A DNA stretch of 64,000 nucleotides from an uncultured Acidobacteriota bacterium. Lineage in GTDB: Bacteria > Acidobacteriota > UBA6911. Positions 7,880-51,795 of the stretch are shown in pieces (positions within the stretch are counted from its first letter, which is position 1; the number at the start of each line of letters is the position of its first letter). Under the pieces are notes generated by a model. It had not been told where the DNA came from and did not search any database. It saw only the letters and a list, made by a program, of their open reading frames with translations. The stretch is taken from positions 32,001 to 96,000 of the forward strand of contig CAWJKZ010000013.1 of the NCBI GenBank assembly GCA_963843575.1, read 5' to 3'. The position numbers and the translations under genes were made by a program.

Positions 7880-7911
7880 GTATCGCTGGTGTAGTGCATT
7901 GGAGACCAGCG

Positions 7912-8517: not shown

Positions 8518-8531
8518 GGAGGACTCAAACC

Positions 8532-13162: not shown

Positions 13163-13163
13163 C

Positions 13164-35433: not shown

Positions 35434-36044
35434 CGTTTGCCGGCGGGGCGCACGCGGGGCTCTCCCGCCCCTTTTCGCTCGCCGTCCTTCTGGCGCATGT
35501 AAAGACACTGCCGGCTCATCTCCTGCCCGAGTAGACAGCGCTCCCGGAAGTAGATCCCGCACTGCACGCAGACATCCTCCGACTTGGCGGAGTACGCGAT
35601 GATCAGGGCCGACACCCGATCCAGCAATCGCGTCAAGTCGGACAGGGCGTCGGGCGGCATTTCGCCGAGTATTTCCGCGAGCTTCTCCCGTGTGGCCGAT
35701 TCATGCGCCTCAAGCAATCGCCGGCCCGGCCCGGTGACCGACAGGTGGATGGCACGCCGATCCGCTTCCCCCTCGCTCCGCCTCAGGAACATGCGGCGCA
35801 CCAGCTTGTCCACTGCTTTGCTCGCCGCCGCATTGCTGATCCCCAGGAACGCAGCCACGTCGCCGATCTTGTGCTCCCCCGAGAGCGCAACCAGCTTGAG
35901 CAGCTTTAACTGCGAGACTGTCAACTGATTGCCCGCCGCCTCGCGCCAGACCTTTTCCTCGATGATCTGCGAGACCGCGTTCGCGAAGATATGAGCGCTC
36001 CCCAGGAAGGCCCGGATCACGTCCGCCTTGTTCGCATCCGACAT
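35430..36044 (-). CDS. MarR-family transcriptional regulator with C-terminal Cys motif
   Basis: LTVSQLKLL, wHTH AASKAVDKLV, DRRAIHLSVT, tail CVQCGIYFRERC...QC. Confidence 0.85.
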   Translation of the reverse strand: MSDANKADVIRAFLGSAHIFANAVSQIIEEKVWREAAGNQLTVSQLKLLKLVALSGEHKIGDVAAFLGISNAAASKAVDKLVRRMFLRRSEGEADRRAIHLSVTGPGRRLLEAHESATREKLAEILGEMPPDALSDLTRLLDRVSALIIAYSAKSEDVCVQCGIYFRERCLLGQEMSRQCLYMRQKDGERKGAGEPRVRPAGKR

Positions 36045-36404
36045 GGGATCAGCCCCTCCTCGGCTTGCCCTGCAGCCGTTACCCACCACCGTTGGGCGAC
36101 CTCACGCATCCCGGTACGCTCCGATGCACACCCGCGGGTTATTCCACCCAGAGATGGTCATTTAACCAAGTTTACTATAATTCAGGTTTACTATCACGTG
36201 TGTTTCACATGTGCACGATCTGACTATTTTACTTCATCCGGTTCATTTCAGTGAAGTTATTCGACTTCGCAGATAGGGCGTCCCGCCGGGGCTCGTTGGA
36301 AGGACATGTGCATGGGTCTTCGTGACAACTCTTGGAGGCCAGTACGCGAACCCCGTTCATCAGCGGCCGTCCCACCCAATCGTCCACACCCAGGAGGATC
36401 TGCC

Positions 36405-36986
36405 ATGGGGGCAGTGCAACAAACCGTTCTTTATGAACAGGCGATGGACCCGCACCTGCTCGAGGAGATCTGCTCCACGCCCGGGGGCGCCAAGATAAAG
36501 GACTGCATCCAGTGCGGCACCTGCAGCGGATCGTGCCCGGTGTCCTGGGCGATGGAGGAGACGCCGCGTCAGATCTTCGCGATGATCCGGGCCGGAATGA
36601 AGGAAAGACTCCTCGACACTCTTACGATCTGGACGTGCGCGTCCTGCTACCAGTGCGCGAGCCGCTGCCCGCAGCAGATCAAGATCACCGACGTCATGTA
36701 TGCGCTCAAGCGCATGGCCATCCGCGAAAACCGCACCCGCAGCAAGAAAGCCCGGCTGTTCGCCCAGGAATTCGCGGCGGTGGTCAACCGGCACGGGCGG
36801 GGCCGAGAGACGGAGCTGATGGTGCGCTACATGCTGGCCACCAACCCTCTCGGCGCGTTGTCCGCGGCCCCTGTCGGCATCAACCTGTTCACGCGCGGCC
36901 GGCTTCCGCTCGGCGGGGGATCGGTGCGCGACATCGCAGGCCTCCGGAAGATCATCGCCAAGGCCGGTGAACTGGGAGGTGAGTGA
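36405..36986 (+). CDS. hdrC: heterodisulfide reductase subunit C
   Basis: AGGAGG RBS; CIQCGTCSGSCP and WTCASCYQCASRCP. Confidence 0.9.
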   Translation: MGAVQQTVLYEQAMDPHLLEEICSTPGGAKIKDCIQCGTCSGSCPVSWAMEETPRQIFAMIRAGMKERLLDTLTIWTCASCYQCASRCPQQIKITDVMYALKRMAIRENRTRSKKARLFAQEFAAVVNRHGRGRETELMVRYMLATNPLGALSAAPVGINLFTRGRLPLGGGSVRDIAGLRKIIAKAGELGGE

Positions 36987-37864
36987 TGCGGTACGCGTAT
37001 TTTCCGGGTTGTTCGCTCGATTCCACGGCACGACCTTACGGCGAGTCGGTTGAGGCGGTCGCTTCCGCACTGGGCATGGAACTGGTCGAGGTAGACGACT
37101 GGAACTGTTGCGGCGCGACCGCCTACATGTGCGTAAACGAGATCCTCTCGTTCAGCCTGAACGCCCGCAACCTGTGCCAGGCCTCCAAGACGGGAGGGCC
37201 GCTGGTCACGCCGTGCAGCGCCTGCTTTACGAACCTGCGCAAGACCGAGAAGTATCTGGCAGACTTCCCGGACATAAAGAAGAAGGTCGACGCTGCCCTG
37301 GCCGAGGCGGGTTTGCGCTACGACGGCGGCATCGAGACGAAGCACCTGTTACAGGTGGTCGTCGAGGATGTCGGGCTGGAGCGCCTGAAGAGCGCGGTGA
37401 AAAAGCCGCTAGCAGGGTTGCGGGTCGCACCGTACTACGGCTGCCAGATCGCCAGGCCGTACGGCATCGAAGACGACAGCGACGACCCGACGATGCTCGA
37501 TCGCCTCCTGGCCGGGCTTGGGGCGACGCCCACCCACTTCCCGATGAAGACGGTCTGCTGCGGCGGCTCCCTCATCGGAACCCGCGAGGAAGTCGCCCTG
37601 CGGCTCTGCCGTAACCTGCTCATGTGCGCCCAGCAGGATGCGGCCGACTGTATCGCGGTCGCCTGCCCCGTGTGTCAACTCAACCTGGACGCCTACCAGG
37701 CGGCGATCAACAAGTCCTACGGGACGGACTTCAACATCCCTGTCGTCTATTTCACCCAGCTGATCGGTCTCGCGCTGGGGCTCGAGTCCGACGCCCTCGG
37801 ACTGCAGCGCTGCATCGTGCCGGCGACGAGAGTTTTCGCCCGGTTTGCACAGGAGACGCGATGA
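36983..37864 (+). CDS. hdrB: heterodisulfide reductase subunit B
   Basis: YFPGCSL, DWNCCGA, YYGCQ, CCGG, CPVCQLNLD (two CCG domains). Confidence 0.93.
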   Translation: MMRYAYFPGCSLDSTARPYGESVEAVASALGMELVEVDDWNCCGATAYMCVNEILSFSLNARNLCQASKTGGPLVTPCSACFTNLRKTEKYLADFPDIKKKVDAALAEAGLRYDGGIETKHLLQVVVEDVGLERLKSAVKKPLAGLRVAPYYGCQIARPYGIEDDSDDPTMLDRLLAGLGATPTHFPMKTVCCGGSLIGTREEVALRLCRNLLMCAQQDAADCIAVACPVCQLNLDAYQAAINKSYGTDFNIPVVYFTQLIGLALGLESDALGLQRCIVPATRVFARFAQETR

Positions 37865-38724
37865 ACACCAAAATCGGGGTTTATATCTGCCACTGCGGCA
37901 CCAATATTTCCGGCAAGGTAAACGTCTCCGAAGTCACGGAGTTCGCCCGGACGCTCCCCGCCGTAGCGGTCGCGCGGGAGTACAAGTTCATGTGCTCGGA
38001 TCCCGGCCAGATCCTCATACAGGACGATATCAAGAACGCGGGGCTGGACCGGGTCGTGGTGGCTTCCTGCTCCCCTCTGATGCACGAGCCGACCTTCCGA
38101 GGCGCCTGCGAGCGCGCGGACCTCAATCGCTATCTCTTCCAGATGGCGAACATCCGCGAGCATTGTTCCTGGGTGACGGTCGACCCGAATGCGGCGACCG
38201 ACAAGGCGAAGGCACTGGTGGCGGCCGCGGTCGCAAAGGCGTCGGCGCTGGACCCGCTCCCGCGCAAGACGGTCCCAGTCAAAAATGCCGCCGTGGTGGT
38301 TGGGGGCGGCATCGCGGGGATACAGGCGGCACTCGACATCGCGGATTCCGGGCGCACCGTGTACCTGATCGAGCGCGAGCCCTCGATCGGGGGGCACATG
38401 GCCCGCTTCGACAAGACCTTCCCGACGCTCGACTGCGCGGCGTGCATCCTCACGCCGAAGATGGTGCAGGTGGGCAAGCACCCCAACATCAAGCTGATGC
38501 CCTCGACCGAGGTGGAGGAGGTCAGCGGCTTTGTCGGCAACTTCCGGGTGAAGGTCCGGCACAAGGCGACCTACGTGGACAAGGACAAGTGTTCGGGGTG
38601 CGGCATGTGCTGGGAGTCCTGCCCGGCCCGGAAGATCCCTGCGCGCCGGGTGATTCGAAAGGGAAAGCTCATGATCGGTCGGAGCGCCAACGGGAACGGT
38701 TTCCACGGCGGCAGCGCGAAATGA
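37861..38724 (+). CDS. hdrA: heterodisulfide reductase subunit A, N-terminal half (split HdrA)
   Basis: IGVYICHCGTNI, VVASCSPLMHEPTF, NIREHCSWV, GGGIAG, DKTFPTLDCAAC, then a single CxxCxxCxxxCP and stop. Confidence 0.88.
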   Translation: MNTKIGVYICHCGTNISGKVNVSEVTEFARTLPAVAVAREYKFMCSDPGQILIQDDIKNAGLDRVVVASCSPLMHEPTFRGACERADLNRYLFQMANIREHCSWVTVDPNAATDKAKALVAAAVAKASALDPLPRKTVPVKNAAVVVGGGIAGIQAALDIADSGRTVYLIEREPSIGGHMARFDKTFPTLDCAACILTPKMVQVGKHPNIKLMPSTEVEEVSGFVGNFRVKVRHKATYVDKDKCSGCGMCWESCPARKIPARRVIRKGKLMIGRSANGNGFHGGSAK

Positions 38725-39083
38725 ACTCACTGCCACAACCGCGGACCCTGACCCTGGCCCAGGTACGGGACATGCTGAACGCCCAGGCCTTCACCGAACT
38801 CGATCTCTCGGCTCCTGTCCAGCGGGTGGGCGCGGCGGATCTGATGAGCGACGTGCTCGCTCTGGGCTGGCCGGGGATGCTCCTGCTGACGGGCCTGGTC
38901 GGCCCCCAGGTGATTCGGACTGCCATCGTGGCGGACCTGTGCGGGGTCGTTTTCGTGCGCGGGAAAAAGCCTAGCGATGACATCCTGGCACTGGCGTTGA
39001 AGGCCCGAATCCCGGTCCTGGGGACGGCACTGACGATGTTCGAGGCGGCGGGGGTGCTCTACGGAGCAATCGGCGGCAGGTGA
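38721..39083 (+). CDS. DRTGG-domain protein
   Basis: AADLMSDVLA, LLLTGL, QVIRTA, VVFVRGKKP. Confidence 0.85.
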   Translation: MNSLPQPRTLTLAQVRDMLNAQAFTELDLSAPVQRVGAADLMSDVLALGWPGMLLLTGLVGPQVIRTAIVADLCGVVFVRGKKPSDDILALALKARIPVLGTALTMFEAAGVLYGAIGGR

Positions 39084-39086
39084 GCG

Positions 39087-39518
39087 ATGGAGCGCGAGGA
39101 GTTCGAGTCCAGCTACCAGGTCGCCGGCCGCGACTTCACGAACGCCGGGAGGGTCTCGACCGACATTAAGGACACGCTCAAGCGCCTCGGCGTCGCCCCG
39201 TCGATCATGCGCAGGGTCGCGATCGCCTGCTACGAGGCGGAGATGAACATAGTCATGTACGCCCATCGCGGGCGGATGGCCCTCCGGGTCAGCCCCCGGG
39301 TGGTGACCATCGAAGCCGCCGACGAAGGACCGGGCATCCAGGACATTGAGCTTGCGATGCAGGAGGGTTATTCGACGGCGACGCCGGAGATGAGAGAAAT
39401 GGGGTTCGGCGCCGGGATGGGGCTGCCGAACATCCGCAGAAACAGCGACGAACTCGAGATCAGTTCCACCGTCGGCCGGGGCACACGGCTGGTGATCCGC
39501 GTGCTCCAATCCGCGTGA
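39087..39518 (+). CDS. anti-sigma factor / Ser-Thr kinase (RsbT-like HATPase)
   Basis: YEAEMNIV, DEGPGI, EGYSTA, GFGAGMGLPNI. Confidence 0.9.
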   Translation: MEREEFESSYQVAGRDFTNAGRVSTDIKDTLKRLGVAPSIMRRVAIACYEAEMNIVMYAHRGRMALRVSPRVVTIEAADEGPGIQDIELAMQEGYSTATPEMREMGFGAGMGLPNIRRNSDELEISSTVGRGTRLVIRVLQSA

Positions 39519-40852
39519 GGAAGAACGTGGCCGCTCAGTACCATCATTCGTTGCGGTTCGATTCCGAGAATTGCGACGGCTGCATGTCCTGTCTGCGTGC
39601 CTGCCCGACGGCAGCGGTGCGGGTGCGCAACGGCCACGCGGTCAAGCTGGCGGACCGGTGCATCGATTGCGGCGAGTGCATCCGGGTCTGCCCCCGCGGC
39701 GCCATCGTTCCCCTCACAAACCACATGGCCGACCTGTCGAAGTTCGAGTGCACGGTGGCCGTGCCCTCGCCGGCCCTCTACGCCCAGTTCGACGCCGATG
39801 TGTCGCCGGGCGCCATCTTCGCCGCCCTCCGCCAGTGCGGCTTTGACGATGTGGAGTGCCTGTCGCCGGCCTGCGATTCCGTCAGCGCGGCCACCGAGAT
39901 GTACCTCAACGCGTACCGGGGCCAGTATCCTCTTATCTCGTCGTTCTGCCCGACCGTGGTCCGGCTAGTCCAGGTGAAGTATCCCGAACTGGTGGACCAA
40001 CTGCTGCCGGTACTGGCTCCGCGCGAGGTTTCCGCCCGGGACGCCAAGGCCCGCAAATCGGCCGAGACCGGCCTTGCCCCCGATCAGATTGGCGCGGTGT
40101 ACATCACCCCGTGCCCCGGCAAGATGGTGGCCATCCTGGAACACCCCGGCATGCAGAGGTCATATCTTGACACCGCCATCTCCATCAGCGACCTCTTCCA
40201 GACCCTTGCGGCGGCAGTCGCCGGTATCGACGATTCCGAGGCGTACCGGCAGGCCGCCGAAACCGCCTCGGGTGTGAGCTGGGCCTTCATGGGCGGTTTG
40301 CCGCGTTCGCTCCCCGCCGAGAACACCCTCGCGGTCGCCGGCCTCCCCAACGTGATCCGCATCCTGGACGACGTCGAAAAGGGGAAGCTTCGGAGGTACT
40401 CGTTCATCGACTGCCACGCCTGCGCCGAGGGGTGTGTGGGCGGATGCCTCACGGTGGAAAACCCGTACGTGGCGCGCGGCAAGATGATCATGTTGTGGCA
40501 GACACTCCCTGCCGGCCCGGCGCTTGACCGCGACGACGTGGAGCGGCGCTACCGCGAAGGCGCGTTCCTGATGGACGAGCCCCTGGCGAGCCGCCCGCTC
40601 AGGCCGCTCGACGAGGACATCTCGCGTGCCATCGCCAAGATGAAGCAGAGGGACCGGATCGTGGCGACCCTGCCCGGGATCGACTGCGGCGCCTGCGGCG
40701 CTCCGTCTTGCCGGGCCTTTGCCGAGGACGTGGTCCTCGGGGACGCCGGGGAAGAGTCGTGCGTCTTCTTTCTCCAGCAGGAGCTCACCGACAGGATCGA
40801 AGGGCTCGCACGCCTCGTCCAGGGCAAGCGCCCCGATGGAGGCCTGAAATGA
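39515..40852 (+). CDS. [FeFe]-hydrogenase-like Fe-S protein (degenerate H-cluster motifs, C-terminal FeS domain)
   Basis: Two N-terminal ferredoxin motifs; SSFCP / TPCPGK / CAEGCVGG; LPGIDCGACGAPSC. Confidence 0.85.
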   Translation: MRKNVAAQYHHSLRFDSENCDGCMSCLRACPTAAVRVRNGHAVKLADRCIDCGECIRVCPRGAIVPLTNHMADLSKFECTVAVPSPALYAQFDADVSPGAIFAALRQCGFDDVECLSPACDSVSAATEMYLNAYRGQYPLISSFCPTVVRLVQVKYPELVDQLLPVLAPREVSARDAKARKSAETGLAPDQIGAVYITPCPGKMVAILEHPGMQRSYLDTAISISDLFQTLAAAVAGIDDSEAYRQAAETASGVSWAFMGGLPRSLPAENTLAVAGLPNVIRILDDVEKGKLRRYSFIDCHACAEGCVGGCLTVENPYVARGKMIMLWQTLPAGPALDRDDVERRYREGAFLMDEPLASRPLRPLDEDISRAIAKMKQRDRIVATLPGIDCGACGAPSCRAFAEDVVLGDAGEESCVFFLQQELTDRIEGLARLVQGKRPDGGLK

Positions 40853-41202
40853 ACGTCGAACAGCTTGCAGCGCAGCTCGGTGCGGAAGTGGTATGCGGGG
40901 GGGCTCGGGCCGCGAGCCGCGAGATCCTCGGCGGCTACGCCTCGGACCTGCTTTCGGACGTGATGGCCAATAGCTGCGAAGGGGACCTCTGGGTGACGCT
41001 GCAGCGGCACGTCAATGTCGTGGCGGTGGCCCAGCTCAAAGGGCTGGCCGGGATCCTCCTGGTGAACGGGCGCCGGCCCGAGCCGGCCGCAGCCGAACGC
41101 GCGGACGTGGAGGGCATTCCGATCGTCACCACGGGATTGCCGGCGTTTGAGGTGATCGGCCGCCTTTGCGGGATGGGCATCGGGGGAAGGAGGTCGGGCT
41201 GA
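40849..41202 (+). CDS. DRTGG-domain protein
   Basis: GGYASDLLSDVMAN, WVTLQRHVNVVAVA. Confidence 0.85.
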   Translation: MNVEQLAAQLGAEVVCGGARAASREILGGYASDLLSDVMANSCEGDLWVTLQRHVNVVAVAQLKGLAGILLVNGRRPEPAAAERADVEGIPIVTTGLPAFEVIGRLCGMGIGGRRSG

Positions 41203-41204
41203 GA

Positions 41205-42482
41205 GTGTTCATGCTGGACACCCACGTGCACACGTGCCTGTCGCCCTGCGCGGAACTGGAGATGCACCCGGCCGCCGTGGCCGGGGCGGCGGTCTCCTCC
41301 GGGCTGGATGCCGTCGCGGTGTGCGATCACAACTCGGCCGAGAATGCGGCCGCCGTGGCGCGCGCCGCGCACAGGTCCGGCCTCGCGGTGATTCCCGGCA
41401 TGGAGATCACCAGCGCCGAGGAGGTTCACGTCCTCGGCCTCTGTCCGGACCTCGAGGCGGCGCTGGAGCTGCAGGCACGTGTTTACCGCTGTCTGCCCGG
41501 CCGCAACGACGCGCGCGCATTCGGCATGCAGGTGGTGGCCAACGAAGACGAGGAGGTGCTCGGCTTCAACGACCACCTCCTGGCCGGCGCGACCACGATG
41601 GCCGTCGACGCCGTGGTCGACGCGATTCACCGGGTGGACGGCCTCGCCGTGGCGTCGCACGTCGACCGCGAGGCTTTTGGAATCTTCGGGCAGCTCGGCA
41701 TGATCCCGGCCGACCTCCGGTTGGATGCCCTGGAGGTCTCGCGACGCACCCCCCTGCCGTCCGCGCGTGCGTCGTTCGCCCCCGGCGGGGAGTGGACTAT
41801 CCTGTGCGCCTCCGATGCGCACGAGCCGAAGGATGTCGGGCAGGCGGCCACGTACATGCTGCTGCAGGAGCCGACCGTCGCGGAACTGCGCCGCGCTTTC
41901 GCCGGCGAAGGGGGACGGACGGTGCTCGGCGGAGGAATGCCGATGGAGGACTTGGCACTGCACATCCTGGACATCGCACGCAACAGCATCGATGCGGGGG
42001 CGACGGAGATCGAGATCGTCATCGAGGAAGACCTCGCCGGCAACCGGCTCACGATCGAGCTGCGCGACAACGGGCGCGGCATGAGCCCGGAAACACTCTC
42101 CCGGGCCGCGGATCCCTTCTTTACCACGCGCACCACGCGCCGGGTCGGCATGGGGCTGCCGCTGCTCGCCCAGGCCGCCCGCAGCGCCGGAGGCGGGCTC
42201 TCGCTGGAGTCGCAACCCGGGCGCGGGACGAGCGTGCGCGCGGTTTTCGAGCACGGCCACATCGATAGGGCACCCCTGGGAGACCTGGAAACAACCCTGA
42301 TGGTGCTGCTCGCAGGTCATTCGGAGATCGACATCAGGTTCCGGCACAGAGTAGACCACGCGGAGTACGAGCTCGACTCCGCCGACCTGCGCGCTGCCGG
42401 GATCGACGTGGGCTCCCCCGAGGGCCTGATGGCGGTGCGCGGCGTCATACGACAGGGAGAGAGATCGTTGTCCAGGAGCTGA
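41205..42482 (+). CDS. PHP phosphoesterase fused to HATPase (kinase-like) domain
   Basis: DTHVHTCLSPC, CDHNS, SDAH, then in frame MEDLALHILDIARNS...DNGRGM...DPFFTTRTTRRVGMG; start uncertain. Confidence 0.8.
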   Translation: MFMLDTHVHTCLSPCAELEMHPAAVAGAAVSSGLDAVAVCDHNSAENAAAVARAAHRSGLAVIPGMEITSAEEVHVLGLCPDLEAALELQARVYRCLPGRNDARAFGMQVVANEDEEVLGFNDHLLAGATTMAVDAVVDAIHRVDGLAVASHVDREAFGIFGQLGMIPADLRLDALEVSRRTPLPSARASFAPGGEWTILCASDAHEPKDVGQAATYMLLQEPTVAELRRAFAGEGGRTVLGGGMPMEDLALHILDIARNSIDAGATEIEIVIEEDLAGNRLTIELRDNGRGMSPETLSRAADPFFTTRTTRRVGMGLPLLAQAARSAGGGLSLESQPGRGTSVRAVFEHGHIDRAPLGDLETTLMVLLAGHSEIDIRFRHRVDHAEYELDSADLRAAGIDVGSPEGLMAVRGVIRQGERSLSRS

Positions 42483-42539
42483 ACCGGGCGTGGTCGAGGG
42501 AACGCGAGACGCGGACAGGAACTGACTTTGGGAGGAAAC

Positions 42540-43028
42540 ATGGTCGACGTCACAAGGGTTCGGGAAATCGTCGGTCGTCACGGCGGTAAACGGGAGCACA
42601 TGATCGCCATCCTGCTCGACTGCCAGGAAGAATACTGCTATCTGCCGCGGGAGGTTCTCGAGGAGCTGTCGGTCCAGATCGACACGCCGCTGACCTCCGT
42701 GCTTTCGATCGCCACGTTCTTCCGTGCCTTCAGCCTCAAGCCGGTGGGCCGCCACCAGGTCCACGTCTGCATGGGCACCGCCTGCAACATCCAGGGGGGG
42801 CCCCGGCTGGTCGAGGCGCTCGAACGCGAGCTGAAGATCAAGAAGGGCGAAACCACGCCGGACATGCAGTTCAGCCTCGACACGGTCAACTGTGTCGGGT
42901 GCTGCGGGCTCGCCCCGGTCATCACCGTCGGACAGGACGTGCACGGAAAACTGAAGCAGTCTTCCATCCCGAGGATTCTGAAGAAGTACAGGTCAAAGGA
43001 GGCAAGCGATGCCGAGACTGTCCATTGA
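42540..43028 (+). CDS. nuoE: NuoE/HydC-like [2Fe-2S] subunit
   Basis: GGAGG RBS; VCMGTAC ... NCVGCCGLAP. Confidence 0.88.
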   Translation: MVDVTRVREIVGRHGGKREHMIAILLDCQEEYCYLPREVLEELSVQIDTPLTSVLSIATFFRAFSLKPVGRHQVHVCMGTACNIQGGPRLVEALERELKIKKGETTPDMQFSLDTVNCVGCCGLAPVITVGQDVHGKLKQSSIPRILKKYRSKEASDAETVH

Positions 43029-43392
43029 GGATCTCAAGCGGATACGCGACGAGTCGCGGCACATCCTCACGCTCAGGTCGGGGGAGGCCCGGGCGAAGGT
43101 GACGGTCCACATGGGTACCTGCGGCATTTCGGCCGGTGCGCGCGACGTCATGGGCGCCCTGCTGAAGGCCATCGAGGAACGCAAGATCACCGACGTGATC
43201 GTCACTACGTCGGGTTGTGCCGGGCTCTGCAGCCGGGAGCCGATGGCGACCGTGGAGCTCGCCGGCCAGCCACCGGTCAAGTACGTCGACCTCAAACCGG
43301 ACCGCATGATCCGCATACTGCAGGAGCACGTGCTCGAGGGCAGAATCGTCACCGACTTCGCGCTGGCCAGGGGCTGTGAGACGACCGGCTAG
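43009..43392 (+). CDS. thioredoxin-like [2Fe-2S] ferredoxin (HydD-like)
   Basis: VHMGTCGISAGA, SGCAGLCSREP. Confidence 0.85.
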   Translation: MPRLSIEDLKRIRDESRHILTLRSGEARAKVTVHMGTCGISAGARDVMGALLKAIEERKITDVIVTTSGCAGLCSREPMATVELAGQPPVKYVDLKPDRMIRILQEHVLEGRIVTDFALARGCETTG

Positions 43393-43469
43393 CCTTCCGG
43401 GACGCCCCGAAAACATCGGAAGGCGCGCAGCGCTTTGATCCGCACGTTTTTGCTGGAGGGAAGGGAGAG

Positions 43470-45309
43470 ATGGCATTCCGCACAAATGTTCTGGTTTGCG
43501 CAGGGACCGGGTGCGTGTCCGGGAACTCCTTTGCGACGGCCCGGGCGCTGGAGACCGAGGTGAAGAAACGGGGCCTGGGAGACGAAATCCAGGTGATACG
43601 CACAGGGTGCCAGGGCTTCTGCGCCGAGGGACCCATCGTGATTGTGCAGCCGGACGGCGTCTTCTACTGCGGCGTGGCCGCCAAGGACGCGCCGTACCTG
43701 GTGGAGGAACATTTCCTGAAAGGCCGGCCGGTGCAGAGGCTGATGTACTCGCCGCCGAAGGAAAAGAGCCCCATCCCGGCGCTCAAGGAGATTCCCTTCT
43801 TCGCCAAGCAGAAGCTGGTCGTGCTGCGCAACCGCGGGGCCATCGACCCGGAGCGCATCGACGACTACATCGCCGTGGACGGTTACACCGCACTGGTCAA
43901 AGCCCTGAGAGATGACGCCCGAGCAGATCATCCGGGAGATCAAGAAGTCGGGGCTGCGCGGGCGCGGCGGCGGCGGCTTTCCGACCGGCATCAAGTGGGA
44001 GACCTGCCGCCACGCAGCGAAACAGCGCAACGAGGAACCCGTCGTCGTCTGCAACGCCGACGAAGGCGACCCCGGGGCCTTCATGGACCGCAGCATCATC
44101 GAGAGCGACCCGCACTCCGTCCTCGAGGGGATGATCATCGGCGCGCGGGCGATCGGCTGCAAAGAGGGCTTCGTCTACATCCGGCACGAGTATCCCATTG
44201 CGCGCGAACGCCTGCTCAAGGCCATCGAGCAGGCGCGCGACTACGGCCTCCTCGGCAAGGGCATCCTGGGCTCCGAAATGGATTTCGACGTCGAGATCGT
44301 CCAGGGGGCGGGCGCATTCGTCTGCGGCGAATCGACGGCTCTCATGGCTTCGCTGGAGGGGAAGGCCGGCGAACCGCGCGCCAAGTACATCCACACGGTG
44401 GAGTACGGGTACAAGAACCGGCCGACGAACCTGAACAACGTCGAGACCTGGGCCAACGTCCCGCTGATCATCAGCCGCGGCGCCGAGTGGTTCGCGTCGA
44501 TGGGGACCGGCGAGGTCAGCGAGAATCCCTGGAACGGAAGCAGCGGGACCAAGGTGTTCTCGATGGTCGGCAAGGTGAACAACACCGGGCTGATCGAGGT
44601 CCCGATGGGCCTGACGCTGCGCGAGATCGTCTTCGACATTGGCGGCGGCATCGCGGGCGGCAGCAAATTCAAGGCGGTGCAGACCGGTGGTCCTTCCGGA
44701 GGGTGCCTCCCGGAAGAGCTGCTGGACATGCCGGTCGACTTCGACAGCCTGACCGAAGCGGGCTCGATGATGGGGTCCGGGGGCATGATCGTCATGGACG
44801 ACCAGACCTGCATGGTCGACGTGGCGCGCTACTTCATCGCCTTCCTGACCGAGGAGTCGTGCGGCAAGTGCGTGCCGTGCCGTGAGGGGTTGCGCACCTC
44901 GCTCGACACCCTCACCCGCATCTCGGAAGGCAAGGGGACCGAACACGACATCGAGCTCCTGTACGAGATCGGCGCCGTCATGCAGGACTGCTGTCTGTGC
45001 GCGCTGGGCACGTCCGCCCCGAACCCGGTGCTGTCGACGCTGCGCTATTTCAAGGAGGAGTACGACGCCCACATCAAGGACCACGTCTGCCCGGCGGGCG
45101 TCTGCAAGGACCTGATCGAGTACAGGATCGACGCGGAGAAGTGCGACGGGTGCCACGCCTGTGTGAAAGGCTGCTCCCCCGCGGCCATCGGGGGCGCGGT
45201 CAAGGAGAAGCACTCCATCGACGGGGACAAGTGCATCAAGTGCGGCGCCTGCCTTGAGGTGTGCAAGCGCGACGCGATCGTGAAAGTTCCGAGGAGTCAT
45301 GCGGCATGA
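43470..45309 (+). CDS. nuoF: NuoF/HydB-like FMN/NADH subunit (one frameshift near 43908, likely a sequencing error)
   Basis: N-terminal [76 protein letters not shown], two C-terminal ferredoxin motifs. Confidence 0.88.
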
Positions 45310-47064
45310 AGACCATCAAAGTGAAGATCAACGGGATCGAAGCCGAGGCTGCGGACCGCACCCCCATCCTGAACATCGCCGAAAAACTGGGGATCAAGAT
45401 CCCCACGCTGTGCCACCACCCGATCCTGGAACCCTATGGCGTGTGCCGCGTGTGCACCGTCGAGGTCCGCTCGGGCAAACGCGTCCGGATGGTGACGGCC
45501 TGCAATTACCCGGCGACGAACGGCATCGAGGTGCTGACCGATTCCGAGCGGGTCCGGCGCGACCGTAAGCTGATCATCGAGTGGCTGATGTCGCGCTGCG
45601 GGCACGTGCCGGTGATCGAGCAGCTCGCGGCCGAGTACGGCATCACGGAACCGCGGTTCGGACGCGGCGACGACGACTGCATCCTGTGCGGGCTCTGCGT
45701 GCGCGTCTGCTCCGACGTCGTCGGCGCCAATGTCCTCGGGTTCTTCAACCGCGGCACGACTCGCGAGGTCTCGACCGCCTACGGCGAGACCTCGGACAAA
45801 TGCATCGCCTGCGGGGCGTGTGCCCACGTCTGCCCCACAGGCGCAATCCGGATCGAGGACGACGCGGCCCTGGTCCAGAAAGAGCTCCCGATGGGGCCGC
45901 TCACCCCGATCGGCATCCCGTTCATGCAGGCGGTGCCGCACCAGCCGGTGATCGACCGCGATTCGTGCATTCACTTCAAGACCGGCGCGTGCAAGGTGTG
46001 CGAAAAGGTCTGCGAGGTGAAGGCGATCGACCACAGCCAGCAGGACCGCGTCGAGGAACTCGAGGTCGGGGCCGTCGTGCTGGCCACCGGCTTCCAGACC
46101 TTCGACGCCAGGAAGATCCCCGAGTACGGCTACGGCAGGTTCGACAACGTCCTGACCGGCATGGAGTTCGAAAAAATGAACAGCGCTTCGGGCTCGACCG
46201 GCGGCCGGATCCTCATGGCCGACGGCAAGGCCCCGAAGTCGGTGGGGATCATTCACTGCGTCGGCAGCCGCGACCAGCGCCACAACAAGCACTGCTCGCG
46301 CGTCTGCTGCATGTACGCGCTGAAGTTCGCACACCTGATCAAGGAGAAGACCGAGGCCGAGGTCTACAACTTCTACATCGACATGCGCTGCTTCGGAAAG
46401 GGCTACGAGGAGTTCTATCACCGCCTGCTGGAGGAGGGAGTGCGGTTCATCCGGGGCCGGGCCGCGTCGGTCACGGACTTCCCGTTGAACGAACACGAGC
46501 GCGGCAAGCTGATCATCCGCGTCGAGGACACGCTGCTCGGCCAGGTGCGGCGCATCCCGGTCGACATGGTCGTGCTGGCCACAGGGCTCGAAGCCGCAGA
46601 AGGCGCGGCCGAACTCGCCCGCACCTTCCACATCAGCTGCCAGCGGCGGTTTCTTCACCGAGCGGCACCCGAAGCTCGCCCCGGTGTCGACGGCCACGGA
46701 CGGGATCTACATCGCCGGCGCGTGCCAGGGGCCGAAGGACATCCCCGACACGGTCGCACAGGCCTCCGCGGCGGCGTCGCAGGTGCAGGCGCTGATGGCC
46801 AAGGGGGAGATCGAGGTCGAGTCCGCCACGAGCATCGTGGATGCCGAGAAGTGCGCCGGGTGCAGGATCTGCAACACCCTCTGCTCGCTCTCGGCCATCA
46901 GCTTCGACGAGGAGAGGCACGTGTCGGTGATCAACGACGTGCTCTGCAAAGGGTGCGGCACCTGCGCTGCGGCATGCCCGAGCGCTGCCATCATCGCGCG
47001 GCACTTCACCGACGAGCAGCTGTTCGCCGAAATAGAAGGAGCTCTGTATGACGTTCGAGCCTAA
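45306..47064 (+). CDS. hdrA: fusion of NuoG/HydA-N-like FeS domain with the C-terminal half of HdrA (frameshift near 46645)
   Basis: IPTLCHH..CRVC..C ([2Fe-2S]) and two ferredoxin motifs, then [36 protein letters not shown]; after the shift [17 protein letters not shown] and a C-terminal 2x[4Fe-4S]. Confidence 0.85.
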
Positions 47065-47485
47065 GATCGTGGGCATTCTCTGCAACTGGTGCTCGTACAC
47101 GGGCGCGGACCTGGCCGGAACCGCCCGCATCAAGTACGCCCCGAACGTGCGCATGATGCGTGTCATGTGCTCCGGCCGAGTCGACCCGACCTTCGTGCTG
47201 AAGGCGTTCGCCGACGGGGCCGACGGGGTGCTCGTCGCCGGGTGCCACCCGGGAGACTGCCACTACATCGACGGGAACTACAAGACCCTGCGCCGCATGG
47301 CGCTGCTGAAGAAGCTGCTCGCCGACTACGGTATCGAGCCGGAACGGTTCCGGCTGGAGTGGGTGTCCGCCTCGGAGGGCGACCGCTGGGCCGAGGTCGT
47401 CAACGGCATCACCGAAGACGTCCGCAGGCTCGGTCCGGCGAAGTTCAAGTCGAAAGGGAAAAAACGAGCCGCCCCGGCGGCCTAG
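47048..47485 (+). CDS. mvhD: methyl-viologen-reducing hydrogenase delta subunit
   Basis: CNWCSYTGADLAG, VMCSGRVDP, GCHPGDCHY, WVSASEG. Confidence 0.95.
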   Translation: MTFEPKIVGILCNWCSYTGADLAGTARIKYAPNVRMMRVMCSGRVDPTFVLKAFADGADGVLVAGCHPGDCHYIDGNYKTLRRMALLKKLLADYGIEPERFRLEWVSASEGDRWAEVVNGITEDVRRLGPAKFKSKGKKRAAPAA

Positions 47486-47633
47486 CACACAGTCTCATAA
47501 GTACGCTGACCTATTTTTCAGGACGCAGAAAACACGGGCGATGAAAGAGAAAAGCCAAAACAGAACGCAGATTCCGCGGGAATCCGCCTCCTGAAAAATG
47601 CGTTAGCGTATTTGCGAACATCAGTACCTAGCA
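47481..47633. mobile_element. MITE-like element with long imperfect inverted repeats and CCTAGCA direct repeat
   Basis: CCTAGCA at 47481-47487 and 47627-47633; arms 47498-47529 and 47583-47614 about 25/32 complementary; lower GC than flanks. Confidence 0.55.
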
Positions 47634-47670
47634 GACGCGGGCTGCACATCTACCGGTATTCGGAGGAAGC

Positions 47671-48627
47671 ATGGCGAAACTGAAATTGGCGTCCTACTGG
47701 GCGGCCGCATGCGGGGGATGCGACGTGGGGATCCTGGACCTGCACGAGAAGATCCTGGACCTCGCGGCAGCCGCGGACATCGTCTTCTGGCCCATCGCGC
47801 TCGATTTCAAGTACGAGGATGTCGAGGCCATGCCGGACGGCCACATCGACGTGACCCTGTTTCACGGGGCCGTCCGCAACTCCGAGAACGAGCATCTGGC
47901 GCGGCTGCTGCGCGCCAAGTCCAAGGTCCTGGTCGCATTCGGGACCTGCGCCCACATCGGCGGCATACCGGGCCTGGCCAACCTGTTCGACAAGAAGTCG
48001 ATCTTTCAGCGTGTCTACCACGACTCCCCCTCGACGGTGAACCCCGACGGCGTCGAACCCCAGCCTCGCTCCAGGGTGCCGGAAGGTGAAATTACGATCC
48101 CGGAGTTCTACGACACGGTCCGGTCCCTGGACCAGGTGGTCGACGTCGAGTACTATGTCCCCGGCTGCCCGCCGACCCCGAAGCAGATCTGGAAGGTGGT
48201 GGAGACGATCGTGTCGGGGCAACTGCCACCGCCCGGCGCCGTCATCGGCGCGTCGGAAAAGACGCAGTGCGACGAGTGCACGCGCAAGAAGAGCGAAAAG
48301 AAGATCACCGGATTCAAACGGATCGCGACCGCACAGCCCGATCCGGACACCTGTTTTCTCGACCAGGGTTTCCTGTGCGTCGGCCCCGTGACCCGGGGCG
48401 GATGCGACACCCGCTGCCAGCTGTCGGGAGTCGCCTGCCGCGGCTGCTATGGCCCGCCGCCGGGAGTGCTCGACCAGGGAGCAAAGGCGATCTCGGCCAT
48501 CGCCTCCGTGATCGAGGCCAAGGACGAGGCTGAGGTAGAACGCATAATCGCAGAGATCCCCGACCCGCTCCGGAGCTTTAACCGGTTCGGCATCCCGGGA
48601 TCCTTATTGGTGAGGAAAGCATTATGA
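47671..48627 (+). CDS. mvhG: group 3c [NiFe]-hydrogenase small subunit
   Basis: GGAGG RBS; AACGGC, AFGTCA, PGCPP, CVGPVTRGGC, CRGCYGP. Confidence 0.92.
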   Translation: MAKLKLASYWAAACGGCDVGILDLHEKILDLAAAADIVFWPIALDFKYEDVEAMPDGHIDVTLFHGAVRNSENEHLARLLRAKSKVLVAFGTCAHIGGIPGLANLFDKKSIFQRVYHDSPSTVNPDGVEPQPRSRVPEGEITIPEFYDTVRSLDQVVDVEYYVPGCPPTPKQIWKVVETIVSGQLPPPGAVIGASEKTQCDECTRKKSEKKITGFKRIATAQPDPDTCFLDQGFLCVGPVTRGGCDTRCQLSGVACRGCYGPPPGVLDQGAKAISAIASVIEAKDEAEVERIIAEIPDPLRSFNRFGIPGSLLVRKAL

Positions 48628-50084
48628 AGCGCATTTCGATTGATCCCATCACGCGGCTGGAGGGGCACGGCAAGATCGACATCTTCCTGGCCGACGACGG
48701 CAGCGTCGCAAACTGCTACTTCCAGGTGCCCGAGCTGCGCGGCTTCGAGAAGTTCGTCGAAGGCATGCCGGCCGAGGAAGTCCCGCGCGTGGTGTCGCGC
48801 ATCTGCGGCGTCTGACCGGCCGCACACCATTTGGCCTCGGGTAAGGCCATAGATGCAGTCTACAAGGTCGATCCGCCGGTCACGGCGAAGAAGCTGCGCG
48901 AGCTCTACTACAGCGCTCACTTCATGCACAGCCACATAGCCCACTTCTACGCGCTCGCCGCCCCCGACTTCGTCGTGGGCCCGGACGCCGATCCCGCGAA
49001 GCGGAACATCCTCGGCATCGTGGAAAAAGTCGGGGTCCCCGTGGCGGCCGAAGTCCTCAAACACCGCGCCATCGCGCAGGACATCCAGATCATGGTGGGG
49101 GGCAGGTCGACCCACCCCGTCTGGACTCTGCCGGGCGGCGTGTCCAAGGGGATCACCGACGCTCAGCGGCTGGAGATCGTCGAGAAGGCGAAATCGTGCG
49201 TGGAGTTCGCCAGGTTCTCCCTGAAGCTGTTCGAGGACATCGTACTCCAGAACAAGACCTACCTCGACCTGGTCCTCTCGGACATCTACGAGCTCGACTC
49301 GTACTGGATCGGGACCGTCGACGAGAAAAACCGGGTGAACTTCTACCAGGGCGAGCACCGCGTCGTGGATCAGGACGCCAAGGAAGTCTTCCGGTACAAG
49401 GACCACGAGTACCTCGATTTCATCTCGGAACGGGTCGAGCAGTTCAGCTACCTGAAGTTCCCCTTCCTGAAGAAGATCGGCTGGAAGGGGCTCGTAGCCG
49501 GACGTGACTCGGGCGTGTACCAGGCGACCCCGCTCTCGCGGCTCAACGCGGCCGACGGGATGGCGACGCCGCTGGCGCAGGCCGAGTACGAGAAGATGTA
49601 CAAAACCCTCGGCGGCAAACCTGTGAAAAAGCTCCTGGCCACGCACTGGGCGCGGCTGGTCGAGTTGCTGTACGCGGCCGAGCGGATGCTCGAGCTGGCC
49701 CAGGACCCGCAGGTCGCGTCGACCGACATCCGCACCCTCCCGACGGCGGTCCCGGAAGAGGGCATCGGGATCGTCGAGGCGCCGCGTGGAATCCTGACCC
49801 ATCACTACAAGACAGACCGGAACGGGCTCATCACCGAAGCGAACCTCGTCGTGGGAACGACGAATAATCATGCGCCGATCTCGCTGGCGATCAAGCAGGC
49901 CGCCCAGCGGCTCATCCAGCCCGGAAAGGCGATCGGGCAGGATCTCCTCAACATGGTGGAGATGGCGTTCCGGATCTTTGACCCGTGCTTCTCGTGCGCG
50001 ACCCACTCCCTGCCGGGGGAAATGCCCCTCGTCGTGGAGGTCCACGCCGCCGACGGCACCGTGGTCCACCGCGTTTCGCGGTAG
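48624..50084 (+). CDS. mvhA: group 3c [NiFe]-hydrogenase large subunit with in-frame UGA (putative selenocysteine) in the L1 motif
   Basis: IDPITRLEGH, LRGFEKF, RICGV-TGA(48813-48815)-PAAHH continues in frame to EAPRG and RIFDPCFSCATH plus a cleavable tail. Confidence 0.9.
48828..48855 (+). promoter_or_regulatory. putative bacterial SECIS hairpin
   Basis: CATTTGGCCT-CGGGTA-AGGCCA(TA)GATG. The stem begins 12 nt and the G-containing loop 22 nt after the UGA. Confidence 0.7.
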
Positions 50085-50125
50085 CACCTGCGCGTCGGGC
50101 GGCGCGTGGCAATCAGCGGAATAAC

Positions 50126-50182
50126 GAAGCCGGAAGTCAGGACCCGGGAACGGCTGCTGGCTTCCGGCTTTTGGCTTTTGGC
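50126..50182. repeat. heptamer-based inverted repeat / terminator-like hairpin
   Basis: AAGCCGGAAGTCAG pairs with CTGGCTTCCGGCTT, followed by TTGGCTT TTGGC. Confidence 0.45.
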
Positions 50183-50234
50183 GCGAACCAGATTCACGTT
50201 ACGCAGCACATAACGGACTGCCGCGATACACCCT

Positions 50235-50732
50235 ATGCGAACGCGGGTAATTGGTCTGGGCAACAGCCTCCTGTCCGACGACGGCGTCGGGATTTACGCG
50301 GCCCGGGAAGTGGCGCGCCGACTCGCCGGGACCGCTCGCGCGGATCCGGTGGACGTAACCGAGTCGGAAGTGGCGGGCTTCGCCCTGATGGAGCTGATGG
50401 CCGGCTGGGACCGCGTCGTGCTCGTCGACTCCGTTGTGTTCGAAGGAGTCGAACCGGGTACGGTCCTGCAGCTGGCGGCCGACGACCTGCACACCTCTCT
50501 CCGGCTGCGTTCCGTGCACGATATCGACCTCCCTACCGCCCTCGAACTCGGCCGTCGCCTCGGCCTGAGTATGCCGTCCGATGTCGTGATCTTCGGCATC
50601 CAGGTCCTGGATCCGTACACCCTGGGGGAAACCCTCACGGAACCTGCAGCCGCCGGACTGCGCGCCGCGACAGACCTGATCCTCCGGGAATTAATTCCCG
50701 CCGACTGCCCCAATTTCCTGCCGCCCTTGTAG
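50235..50732 (+). CDS. hydrogenase maturation protease
   Basis: IGLGNSLLSDDGVG, VVLVDS, SVHD. Confidence 0.92.
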   Translation: MRTRVIGLGNSLLSDDGVGIYAAREVARRLAGTARADPVDVTESEVAGFALMELMAGWDRVVLVDSVVFEGVEPGTVLQLAADDLHTSLRLRSVHDIDLPTALELGRRLGLSMPSDVVIFGIQVLDPYTLGETLTEPAAAGLRAATDLILRELIPADCPNFLPPL

Positions 50733-50784
50733 TTGTGCCTCGGACAAGTCAGAATTGGTACAAACAGCTCGGAGGGTTCGTGGA

Positions 50785-51795
50785 ATGAAAAGCATGCGTT
50801 TGCTGATCTGCCTGACACTGTGCGCCGCTCTCTGCGCGGCTTTGCCGCTCGAGGCCGCGGTAAAGACCGAACAGAAGAGCCAGATGAAATTCGAGGGGAT
50901 GATGGGCCGCATGATGGGTCTCTTCGGCGGCAAGGCCATGAAGGAGGGGGTCGTCAACACCGTCGCGGTCAAGGGGAACCGCAAGGCGACCTTCAGCGAC
51001 AACGGCGGCGAGATCATCGACCTGGATGAAGAAAAGGTCTACACGATCGACGCCAAGAAGAAGACCTACGACGTGACCACCTTCGCCGAGATGAAGCGCC
51101 GGATGGAGGAGGCCAGGGAGAAGGCCGAGAAGCAGGCGCGCCAGGAGGCGGGCAAGAAGGAAGCGGAGCCGTCGCAACAGCAGCAAGAACAGAAGATGGA
51201 AATCGACGTTTCGCTCAAGGAATCCGGACAGAAACGAACCATCAACGGCTTCGACTGCCGCGAGGTCGTCATGACCGTCACGGCGCGCGAGAAGGGAAAG
51301 ACGCTCGAGCAGGCCGGCGGAATGGTCCTTACCTCGAACATGTGGCTGGCCCCACGCATCGAGGCCATGAAGGAGGCGGAGGAATTCGACTGCCGTTACG
51401 CGCAGAAGCTGGGCGAGATCGTCGGCGTTCCGTCGGGGGAACAGGCCACCGCCGCGCTGGCGATGTACCCGGGGTTCAAGGACATGATGGGCAAGATGCA
51501 GACCGAAAAGGTCAACATGGACGGCACGGCGATCCTGACCGTGATGACCATGGAGGCGGTCAAGAGCCCCGAGCAGATGTCCCAGCAGCAGCGCGAGAGC
51601 GAGTCGTCGGATACGCCCGCCCGCGGCATCGGCGGGCTGATCGGCCGCAGAATCATGCGGAAAAAGGAGGAGAGTCCCTCACAGGCTCCCAACCGCGCGA
51701 CGATCATGACCATGAACAGCGAACTGCTCAAGGTCACGCCCGACGTGACCGCCGCCGACCTGGCCATACCTGCGGGCTTCCGCGAAACAAAGTGA
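50785..51795 (+). CDS. secreted hypothetical protein (DUF4412-like, Met-rich)
   Basis: GGAGG RBS, signal peptide, IIDLDEEKVY, GQKRTINGFDC, C-terminal IPAGF. Confidence 0.7.
   Translation: MKSMRLLICLTLCAALCAALPLEAAVKTEQKSQMKFEGMMGRMMGLFGGKAMKEGVVNTVAVKGNRKATFSDNGGEIIDLDEEKVYTIDAKKKTYDVTTFAEMKRRMEEAREKAEKQARQEAGKKEAEPSQQQQEQKMEIDVSLKESGQKRTINGFDCREVVMTVTAREKGKTLEQAGGMVLTSNMWLAPRIEAMKEAEEFDCRYAQKLGEIVGVPSGEQATAALAMYPGFKDMMGKMQTEKVNMDGTAILTVMTMEAVKSPEQMSQQQRESESSDTPARGIGGLIGRRIMRKKEESPSQAPNRATIMTMNSELLKVTPDVTAADLAIPAGFRETK

Follow-up and report, generated by a model that had tools for sequence, protein, structure and literature searches.

The window analysed here is a stretch of 64,000 nucleotides (nt) from an uncultured Acidobacteriota bacterium (contig CAWJKZ010000013.1, positions 32,001 to 96,000 of the forward strand; all coordinates below are those of the window). 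Positions 36405-50732 of its plus strand carry hdrC-hdrB-hdrA(N), five regulatory-type genes, hydC-hydD-hydB, a fusion gene and then mvhD-mvhG-mvhA-protease, as read from translation and Pfam. Gene order, strand and coordinates agree with a preliminary description made from the letters of the sequence. Since the window is 62-69% G+C, off-frame open reading frames (ORFs) stay open over long stretches. We therefore mapped the genes by three-frame translation, Pfam and comparison with relatives. The Pfam scans took in the ORFs of the window between 32 and 64 kb. The locus joins genes of the MvhAGD-HdrABC type to a Bfu module, and the join lies in HdrA, which is divided between hdrA(N) and the fusion gene. 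Judged by sequence comparison, this Mvh-Hdr-Bfu arrangement is real, conserved and uncharacterised, a variant in which known modules are combined afresh.

HdrA is encoded here in two pieces. Residues 4-256 of HdrA(N) match residues 5-258 of 5odc_A (E = 5.7e-99, phmmer), and residues 156-442 of the fusion match residues 236-509 of the same chain (2.9e-66, phmmer). We placed the cut by aligning both pieces with the unsplit HdrA of bacterial hdrCBA-mvhDGA operons. It falls inside the inserted ferredoxin domain, between the two cysteine motifs of that domain. HdrA(N) holds the N-terminal domain, the first half of the thioredoxin reductase (TrxR)-like domain that binds flavin adenine dinucleotide (FAD), the first CxxCxxCxxxCP motif and a tail of about 30 residues. 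Homology to HdrA restarts in the fusion at a PIxIPFxQAxP segment, followed by the second motif, C-x7-C-x2/3-C-x3-C (x2 in the window fusion). The rest of the FAD domain and the C-terminal ferredoxin domain come after it. All HdrA domains are present, spread over two genes 6.6 kb apart, and no single polypeptide holds them all. The genes hydC, hydD and hydB sit within the cut. Because the FAD fold is divided between both polypeptides, HdrA(N) and the fusion, as read from their sequences, must assemble into one HdrA. With the cut between its motifs, the inserted domain would have to draw the ligands of its two [4Fe-4S] clusters from both polypeptides.

Ahead of its HdrA half, the fusion carries a BfuA-type domain. 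Residues 4-186 match residues 5-188 of 9mqx_A, a NuoG-like chain of 247 residues (5e-39, phmmer), and the N termini of HydA and NuoG match as well. This domain has one [2Fe-2S] and two [4Fe-4S] motifs, and all 12 iron-sulfur (FeS) cysteines are invariant in an alignment of 16 sequences. The His-ligated cluster motif of long HydA and NuoG was not seen in the translated domain or in that alignment. The domain lies about 35 residues upstream of the second inserted-ferredoxin motif, and assembly of HdrA(N) with the fusion would thus tether a BfuA-type arm to HdrA. The inserted ferredoxin domain is the low-potential output of the bifurcating FAD of HdrA according to a paper on a methanogen super-assembly (PMC13518236). 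It is assigned to the low-potential output also in section 7 of a preprint on class II benzoyl-CoA reductase (BCRII; 10.64898/2026.04.10.717634). As these sources describe it, polyferredoxins dock at the domain in methanogens, and in BCRII it leads to the tungsten module.

Table 1. Genes and elements of the Mvh-Hdr-Bfu operon in the window.
Feature	Position	Strand	Evidence
hdrC, 2x[4Fe-4S] subunit	36405..36986	+	Pfam Fer4_8/Fer4_17 dicluster; syntenic tblastn matches at 40-90% identity in relatives
hdrB, predicted disulfide-reducing site	36983..37864	+	Pfam CCG 7.7e-25, 2 stretches; overlaps hdrC stop
hdrA(N), 287 residues	37861..38724	+	Pfam FAD/Pyr_redox_2 and one Fer4 motif; phmmer to 5odc_A
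DRTGG-like regulatory protein 1	38721..39083	+	No Pfam match; 37% identity to DRTGG-domain protein 2
Small kinase-like HATPase_c_2 protein	39087..39518	+	Pfam
HydS-like [FeFe]-hydrogenase homologue, putative H2 sensor	39515..40852	+	Pfam Fe_hyd_lg_C 9.2e-28, FeS 3.5e-13, N-terminal Fer4 dicluster
DRTGG-domain protein 2	40846..41202	+	Pfam DRTGG 9.4e-6
PHP phosphoesterase fused to HATPase_c	41211..42482	+	Pfam
hydC/BfuC, NuoE-like [2Fe-2S]	42540..43028	+	Pfam 2Fe-2S_thioredx 1.5e-45; two genes upstream of hydB
hydD, small Trx-like [2Fe-2S] protein	43009..43392	+	No Pfam match; phmmer to N-domains of BfuB chains, best 9n5u_B 7.8e-14
hydB/BfuB, two frames (43470-43907, then 43909/43912-45309)	43470..45309	+	phmmer to 7t2r_B and 7q4w_B
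Fusion, BfuA/HydA-type N-domain and HdrA C-half	45306..47064	+	Pfam Fer2_4, Fer4 dicluster and Pyr_redox_2; phmmer
mvhD, [2Fe-2S] adaptor	47048..47485	+	Pfam FlpD 3.4e-55; overlaps end of fusion gene
mvhG, [NiFe] hydrogenase small subunit	47671..48627	+	Pfam Oxidored_q6 3.2e-25
mvhA, [NiFe] hydrogenase large subunit	48624..50084	+	Pfam NiFeSe_Hases; in-frame TGA 48813-48815; C-terminal DPCFSC
SECIS-like hairpin UGGCCU-CGGGUA-AGGCCA	48832..48849	+	Starts 17 nt after mvhA TGA
HycI-type hydrogenase maturation protease	50235..50732	+	Pfam HycI 2.7e-11

The genes within the hdrA cut encode a Bfu-type core. HydB is read in two parts because the deposited sequence changes frame. The closest solved chains to its C part are the Bfu B subunits 7q4w_B, 7q4v_B, 9mqx_B, 7t2r_B, 8a6t_B and 7p5h_B (E = 1e-150 to 1e-179; 8.7e-179 against 7t2r_B 150-597 and 7q4w_B), with matches over residues 1-457 of that part. 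These alignments reach the 2x[4Fe-4S] domain at the C terminus. The NuoF chains of complex I match at about 1e-97, with alignments that end before that domain. The N part (146 residues, in the other frame) aligns over residues 3-146 with 7t2r_B 4-147 (6.9e-46) and abuts the C-part match, which begins at 150. Pfam finds Complex1_51K, NADH_4Fe-4S, SLBB and a C-terminal Fer4 dicluster in 43912-45309. In 16 homologues from split operons, the NuoF-type cluster cysteines C317/C320/C323/C363, the linker site H387/C393/C398 and the two C-terminal CxxCxxCxxxC motifs (C411-C421 and C441-C451) are invariant. The HydB motifs listed in the preliminary description, the C-terminal pair included, are all in the translation, and the nearest solved chains and the invariant cysteines bear out its assignment of HydB as a bifurcating subunit.

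Given one change of frame, HydB holds the BfuB features: a site for flavin mononucleotide (FMN) and NAD, an N-terminal [2Fe-2S] cluster, a NuoF-type [4Fe-4S] cluster, a linker metal site and a C-terminal 2x[4Fe-4S] domain. The NuoE-like [2Fe-2S] protein BfuC is co-encoded with it as hydC. By the definitions of Schut et al. (2022; PMC9304861), HydB and HydC with the N-domain of the fusion are, on these sequence features, a BfuBC core with a short BfuA. We also predicted a complex between the C part of HydB and residues 1-228 of the fusion. It scored 0.82, a value reached by 116 of 157 solved pairs and 2 of 215 mismatched pairs, and the best of three controls scored 0.00. The runs agree in at least 98% of contacts, and the predicted local distance difference test (pLDDT) of the partner is at least 76. 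The predicted interface joins HydB 313-362, the four-helix [4Fe-4S] region, to fusion residues 44-97 and 117-153. The model supports binding of HydB to the N-domain of the fusion. Since homologous HydABC complexes have been solved, the prediction may reflect likeness or memory and is no independent proof.

The arrangement is not confined to one genome. Full-length fusion genes at 81-85% identity (open frames of 589-613 amino acids) occur in six of 40 relatives, genomes that belong to four other genera, and a more distant relative has the fusion at 52%. Intact homologues span 584-618 amino acids. Four fetched neighbourhoods (L017-L020) have an identical gene order from hdrC to the protease, with hydB and the fusion each in a single frame. 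For the wider comparison we kept the best 80 loci of 560 confirmed relatives in species-representative genomes. The fusion is present in 35 of these 80; about 40 are unsplit hdrCBA-mvhDGA operons, one is of the HdrL type and the remainder are partial. In all 35 fusion loci hydB lies upstream of the fusion, directly in 32 and behind a regulatory cassette in three. The genes hdrC-hdrB-hdrA(N) are upstream in 28, and the remaining seven end at contig edges; mvhD follows in 34, and the last ends at a contig edge. The synteny search proposed for the locus thus returned the core order from several phyla. Labels of the fusion loci include Acidobacteriota (several orders), Aminicenantes, Neomarinimicrobiota/Fidelibacterota, Eisenbacteria, Sumerlaeota, Nitrospirales, Planctomycetota, Clostridia and one "archaeon" bin. 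Of 300 further genomes sampled evenly from the phylum of the window, 20 have the full-length fusion. The Mvh-Hdr-Bfu arrangement is not due to chance, being syntenic in dozens of other genomes.

Database names do not set the fusion apart: 116 of the best 120 protein clusters cover at least 99% of the 444-residue query, and their names are only "heterodisulfide reductase subunit A/A2", "4Fe-4S binding protein" and similar. The regulatory cassette accompanies the Bfu genes in 24 of the 35 fusion loci and is absent in seven. We therefore take the core unit to be hdrCB-hdrA(N)-hydC(D)B-fusion-mvhDGA, with the cassette as an accessory. In three Planctomycetota-labelled loci (L058, L060 and L065), a DRTGG-HATPase-DRTGG-PHP cassette without a HydS-like match stands between hydB and the fusion, which suggests that the cassette moved or entered independently. 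In a quick tree of the HdrA C-half, the sequence from the "archaeon"-titled bin (L064) groups with a Nitrospirales-labelled one, and this locus is possibly a case of mis-binning or transfer. That tree has 74 rows and leaves out L035, L036, L055, L069, L089, L098 and L102; the labels of L049, L067 and L071 are doubtful, their matches being cut or partial. Split forms occur in several places in it, and its starred branches force at least four changes.

Other copies and relatives of the fusion were also seen. Three sampled genomes of the phylum (G210, G278 and G177) each have two full-length fusion copies, which in two of them lie on the same contig, 17-18 kb apart and on opposite strands. Larger relatives at G166:C16:28374-29696, G319:C23:6300-7631 and G022:C169:18771-20141 have frames of 1076-1102 amino acids and match nearly the whole query at 39-46% identity. 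This suggests further fusion variants of BfuA-type and HdrA-type parts.

As deposited, hydB shifts frame near 43908 and the fusion near 46640. In hydB the window has CTGA-GAGATG at the junction, 2 nt shorter than a relative with CTGACCGAGATG (CTGA[CC]GAG). Near 46640 the window is 1 nt longer than its relatives, after ATCAGCTGC. The sequence 3' of both shifts is 81-93% identical to intact relatives and has no further stops. The same assembly has rpoB in five frame pieces, rpoC in three, selA in at least five and selD in two, at sites outside the window (G000, C24:253259-261310, C8:2469-3523 and C13:704799-705723). A same-genus genome has many more breaks in this operon, at other positions. Because the essential rpoB and rpoC are also split and the relatives are intact, both frameshifts are most likely consensus or assembly errors, not the real shifts that the preliminary description had named as a danger to its reading. 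Given the breaks in rpoB, rpoC, selA and selD, any single frameshift of this assembly is to be distrusted. Contigs from four sequencing runs (each holding at most 0.09 of the sampled words, at 88% likeness) included no near-identical contig over 43908 or 46640, which says nothing either way. Programmed frameshifting of hydB and the fusion was considered and rejected, as the relatives are single-frame and the same assembly breaks rpoB and rpoC.

The in-frame TGA of mvhA, a codon that the preliminary description does not mention, calls for a different explanation. It stands at the second cysteine of the RxCGxCxxxH motif (RICGV-TGA-PAAHH), which by homology would be a bridging ligand of the Ni-Fe site. 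Among 64 homologous loci with abutting flanking matches, nine have TGA at this position and 55 have TGC or TGT. The hairpin downstream resembles a selenocysteine insertion sequence (SECIS) element, and its core GGCCTCGGGTAAGGCC is letter-identical in the window and in eight of the nine TGA loci, with nearby synonymous sites varying. In the ninth, the Neomarinimicrobiota-labelled L043, another hairpin, with a GGU loop, stands at that offset. The hairpin was absent from nine of the 55 Cys-type loci, those that were inspected. The fold of 48810-48880 is not significant alone (z = -0.47), and Rfam at E up to 1 gave no match in 35800-51200, the hairpin included. The genome holds tRNA-SeC, selB (above its cut-off), selA and selD. 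On these sequence grounds the TGA most likely encodes selenocysteine (Sec), which would probably make MvhA a group 3c [NiFeSe] hydrogenase of the rare CxxU type. An N-terminal CxxU has been reported before: a 2026 paper on group 4 enzymes (PMC13582414) names, after Baltazar et al. 2011, two sequences of group 1 and one of group 3. The selD gene of this genome also has an in-frame TGA near its N terminus, where Sec is possible.

Nine of the 15 gene junctions show start/stop overlap or a gap of at most 9 nt, with overlaps typically of 4-20 nt. Of the six larger gaps, four measure 57 nt before hydC, 77 nt before hydB, 185 nt between mvhD and mvhG and 150 nt between mvhA and the protease, and the other two are smaller. 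A consensus scan of 35800-51200 found one promoter-like site (1.7 in shuffles) and 11 terminator-like sites (8.1 in shuffles), nothing beyond the shuffled sequences. Upstream of hdrC and divergent from it, on the minus strand (32004-36101), are genes for a sigma-54 response regulator, a Cache/HAMP histidine kinase and a MarR-family protein, which may regulate the operon. Farther away, positions 1-5300 and 7800-13200 gave only fragmentary Pfam matches (Esterase 110-159 of 251; DUF5107 5-49 of 310), and same-strand ORFs overlap around an SBP_bac_5 gene there; these are probably further frame errors or decayed genes.

The nearest known systems each share a part of this locus. All six subunit types of the MvhAGD-HdrABC complex of hydrogenotrophic methanogens (group 3c; PDB 5ODC, 8RVU) are present, in the order of unsplit bacterial hdrCBA-mvhDGA operons. 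The HdrA halves tile 5odc_A, HdrB has two CCG domains and HdrC a dicluster, MvhD is of the FlpD type, and MvhA has its NiFe motifs in the form RICGV-TGA-PAAHH and DPCFSC. Unlike that complex, HdrA here is two polypeptides cut in the inserted ferredoxin domain, with a BfuA arm and a whole Bfu core added at that point, and MvhA has a TGA at its second N-terminal Cys ligand. The heterodisulfide of coenzymes M and B (CoM-S-S-CoB) is presumably an unlikely substrate, the host being a bacterium. With the Bfu family of FeFe-HydABC and NiFe-HydABCSL (PDB 7T2R, 7Q4V, 7P5H, 8A6T), as set out by Schut et al., the locus shares a HydB with the Bfu domain set, a NuoE-like HydC and a short BfuA-type domain closest to 9mqx_A. 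Here, however, BfuA has no catalytic domain and is fused to half an HdrA, and the module for the third substrate is a flavin-bifurcating Mvh-Hdr. No such type was found in the main text of that paper or in one supplement, which has no Hdr, Mvh or Acidobacteria term; its supplementary clade tables could list it.

HdrL, a fusion of HdrA with a glutamate-synthase-type protein (Strittmatter et al. 2009, PMC2702500), also joins a pyridine-nucleotide module to HdrA beside mvhD. HdrL is a single chain whose NAD(P)H module consists of one domain, whereas the locus here has a split gene and a multi-subunit FMN/FeS core and no GltD/NfnB-like domain. One of our loci, from a near relative (L085:7538-11074), encodes an unsplit HdrL-type HdrA of 1179 residues, with a GltD/NfnB-like NAD(P)H/FAD insert of about 500 residues in the same loop of the inserted ferredoxin domain. 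Its mvhA is 78% identical, also with a TGA. Open frames of 1133-1178 amino acids are present as well in six sampled genomes of the phylum. In the FlxABCD-HdrABC system of sulfate reducers, genes for an NAD(H)-linked module likewise accompany those for HdrABC and an MvhD-like protein. Flx has an NADH-binding flavoprotein of a different family and is not known to have a hydrogenase, and no Flx-type domain turned up in the Pfam scans of the locus.

The only characterised complex found in a literature search that joins HydBC/Bfu and HdrA-type modules is BCRII, Bam[(BC)2DEFGHI]2. This coupling was proposed by Schut et al. and, according to the April 2026 preprint, shown by cryo-electron microscopy and assays as sequential confurcation and bifurcation. 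In BCRII the Bfu module is BamGHI, the HdrA-type flavoprotein is BamE, BamF serves as the MvhD-like adaptor and BamD as the HdrBC-like subunit. As described there, its Bfu arm leads to the mid-potential input through a C-terminal ferredoxin-like domain and BamF, its inserted ferredoxin domain leads to BamBC, and it has no hydrogenase. Our operon, unlike BCRII, lacks the tungsten subunits BamBC (no aldehyde-oxidoreductase-type domain appears among the ORFs of 32-64 kb in Pfam) and has no hydrogenase-free input. MvhAGD stands on its input side instead, and the Bfu arm is fused into the inserted ferredoxin domain. BamE is a fused, permuted HdrA dimer, whereas HdrA here is split. The preliminary description had held these modules to be known only as separate complexes. 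This is right for Mvh-Hdr and the Bfu hydrogenases, but the joining of Bfu and HdrA is known from Bam-Bfu/BCRII, and the principle is not unprecedented. The literature search found no Mvh-Hdr-Bfu operon, no split HdrA fused to BfuA and no identical architecture already characterised; the principal review on modules of HdrA (Appel et al. 2021, BBA 1862:148379), which may bear on novelty, lay outside it.

How could these parts work together? We propose that HdrA(N) and the fusion would re-form one HdrA and share the ligands of its two inserted [4Fe-4S] clusters. HydB and HydC would dock on the BfuA-type domain as in solved HydABC. H2 would be oxidised at MvhA, and electrons would pass through MvhG and MvhD to the FAD of HdrA. 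The high-potential electron would travel through HdrC and HdrB to a disulfide. The low-potential electron would leave through the re-formed inserted domain and the BfuA arm for the FMN/FeS centre of HydB, which would split electrons between NAD+ and ferredoxin (Fd). The overall reaction would be about 4 H2 + 2 RSSR + NAD+ + 2 Fdox -> 4 RSH + NADH + 2 Fdred, where RSSR is the disulfide and RSH the thiol, and it is probably reversible. We favour this serial wiring because the domain for low-potential output is cut and covalently continued by a BfuA arm that is partnered with a BfuBC core. That the inserted-ferredoxin loop is used twice for pyridine-nucleotide modules, by the HdrL-type protein of L085 and by the Bfu fusion, fits the same order.

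Disulfide reduction would serve as an extra driving force, allowing the Bfu core to run at lower H2 pressures than a plain bifurcating hydrogenase can use. By arithmetic on textbook potentials, H2 at about 10 Pa (about -300 mV) with a disulfide at -140 mV could yield electrons at about -450 mV, enough for a Bfu core with an average need of about -390 mV. The cassette of HydS-like protein, kinase, PHP protein and DRTGG proteins would tune expression or activity to H2; the HydS-like protein is what we take to be the H2 sensor. The idea first put forward in the preliminary description, one composite complex for H2, NAD(H), ferredoxin and disulfide in which bifurcation could occur at two sites, fits every test applied: the division of the HdrA fold, the Bfu-type HydB, the cross-phylum gene order and the fold prediction. 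We put at about even chances the reading that group-3c-type MvhAGD, HdrABC and the Bfu module form one complex in which the low-potential electron of HdrA enters the HydBC core through the split domain and the BfuA arm. A fuller claim would be a two-stage cascade in uncultured Acidobacteriota and several other phyla. In it, a Sec-bridged [NiFe] hydrogenase would feed the HdrA FAD, and the low-potential branch of HdrA, plugged into the Bfu FMN/FeS centre, would make NADH and reduced ferredoxin below the H2 reach of any known bifurcating hydrogenase, paid for by a disulfide. This claim is tentative and open to considerable doubt.

Several observations weigh against the serial scheme. The one solved complex of Bfu and HdrA, BCRII, has a Bfu arm that feeds the mid-potential input and not the low-potential port. 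The linker of about 35 residues leaves other placements of the BfuA arm relative to the HdrA clusters open. No candidate gene for a disulfide carrier was found beside the operon in the Pfam scans. Since the consensus scan gave nothing above shuffled sequence, co-transcription is argued from the gene overlaps alone. The tree of the HdrA C-half does not separate a single origin of the split from several, and hydB and the fusion are frameshifted in the sequence as deposited.

The same single complex could also run toward H2. Confurcation of NADH and reduced ferredoxin at the Bfu core would send electrons along the BfuA arm to the HdrA FAD, possibly joined by thiol electrons at HdrBC, and MvhAGD would release H2 as a fermentative sink tuned by the HydS-like sensor. 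We consider this a real possibility, though an unlikely one. HydS-like/PHP-kinase/DRTGG cassettes accompany the H2-evolving HydABC of fermenters, and such a cassette stands with the Bfu genes in most fusion loci; its absence from seven of the 35 counts the other way, and the sequence fixes no direction. Oxidation of thiol to disulfide coupled to H2 release also has no obvious benefit. Bfu enzymes and Mvh-Hdr are described as reversible (Schut et al.; a paper on Asgard archaea that calls HdrABC-MvhADG H2-evolving).

A parallel wiring within one complex is distinctly less probable. The BfuA arm would then sit on the mid-potential side, at MvhD or the C-terminal ferredoxin domain of HdrA, as BamI does in BCRII, and MvhAG would serve HydB (NAD+ and ferredoxin) and HdrA (disulfide and ferredoxin) independently. 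From NiFe-HydABCSL it is known that a Bfu core can take its electrons from a [NiFe] module (PMC8880783; Schut et al.). The fusion point, however, is inside the inserted ferredoxin domain, away from both the C-terminal ferredoxin domain and MvhD. The HdrL-type relative places another NAD(P)H module in the same loop, and cutting a cluster-binding domain in two would make little sense if it lay outside the electron path.

Gene neighbourhood alone does not prove a complex, and the operon might encode two independent enzymes, a conventional Mvh-Hdr and a separate HydBC(D) diaphorase, in which case the fusion would carry its N-domain as a vestige or as a generic FeS extension. This is very improbable given the covalent joining of the BfuA-type domain to the HdrA C-half, the invariance of its 12 cluster cysteines, the position of hydB upstream of the fusion in every fusion locus and a predicted HydB/N-domain interface that passes its controls, even if memory of solved complexes may have helped it. 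Recent real inactivation in this strain, a decaying pseudo-operon with two true frameshifts and a premature stop in mvhA, is scarcely credible: the broken rpoB and rpoC make frame errors a property of the assembly, identity to intact relatives continues past both shifts without more stops, and the TGA falls exactly on a Cys that alternates with TGA, before a conserved hairpin and in a genome with tRNA-SeC, selB, selA and selD.

Electron bifurcation lets anaerobes reach very low redox potentials without ATP. If the serial scheme is true, Mvh-Hdr-Bfu would be a second and differently wired Bfu and HdrA chain after BCRII, and the first with a hydrogenase. Its Bfu core would hang on the low-potential exit of HdrA and not feed the HdrA input, and it would offer a natural test bed for the gating of two bifurcating centres in series. 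The fusion is not a one-genome curiosity, being present across the sampled phylum and in loci of several other phyla. The operon also bears on the long-open question of the substrate of bacterial HdrBC. If the cascade works, it would change models of H2 thresholds, of the balance between NADH and ferredoxin and of the turnover of thiols and disulfides in anoxic habitats.

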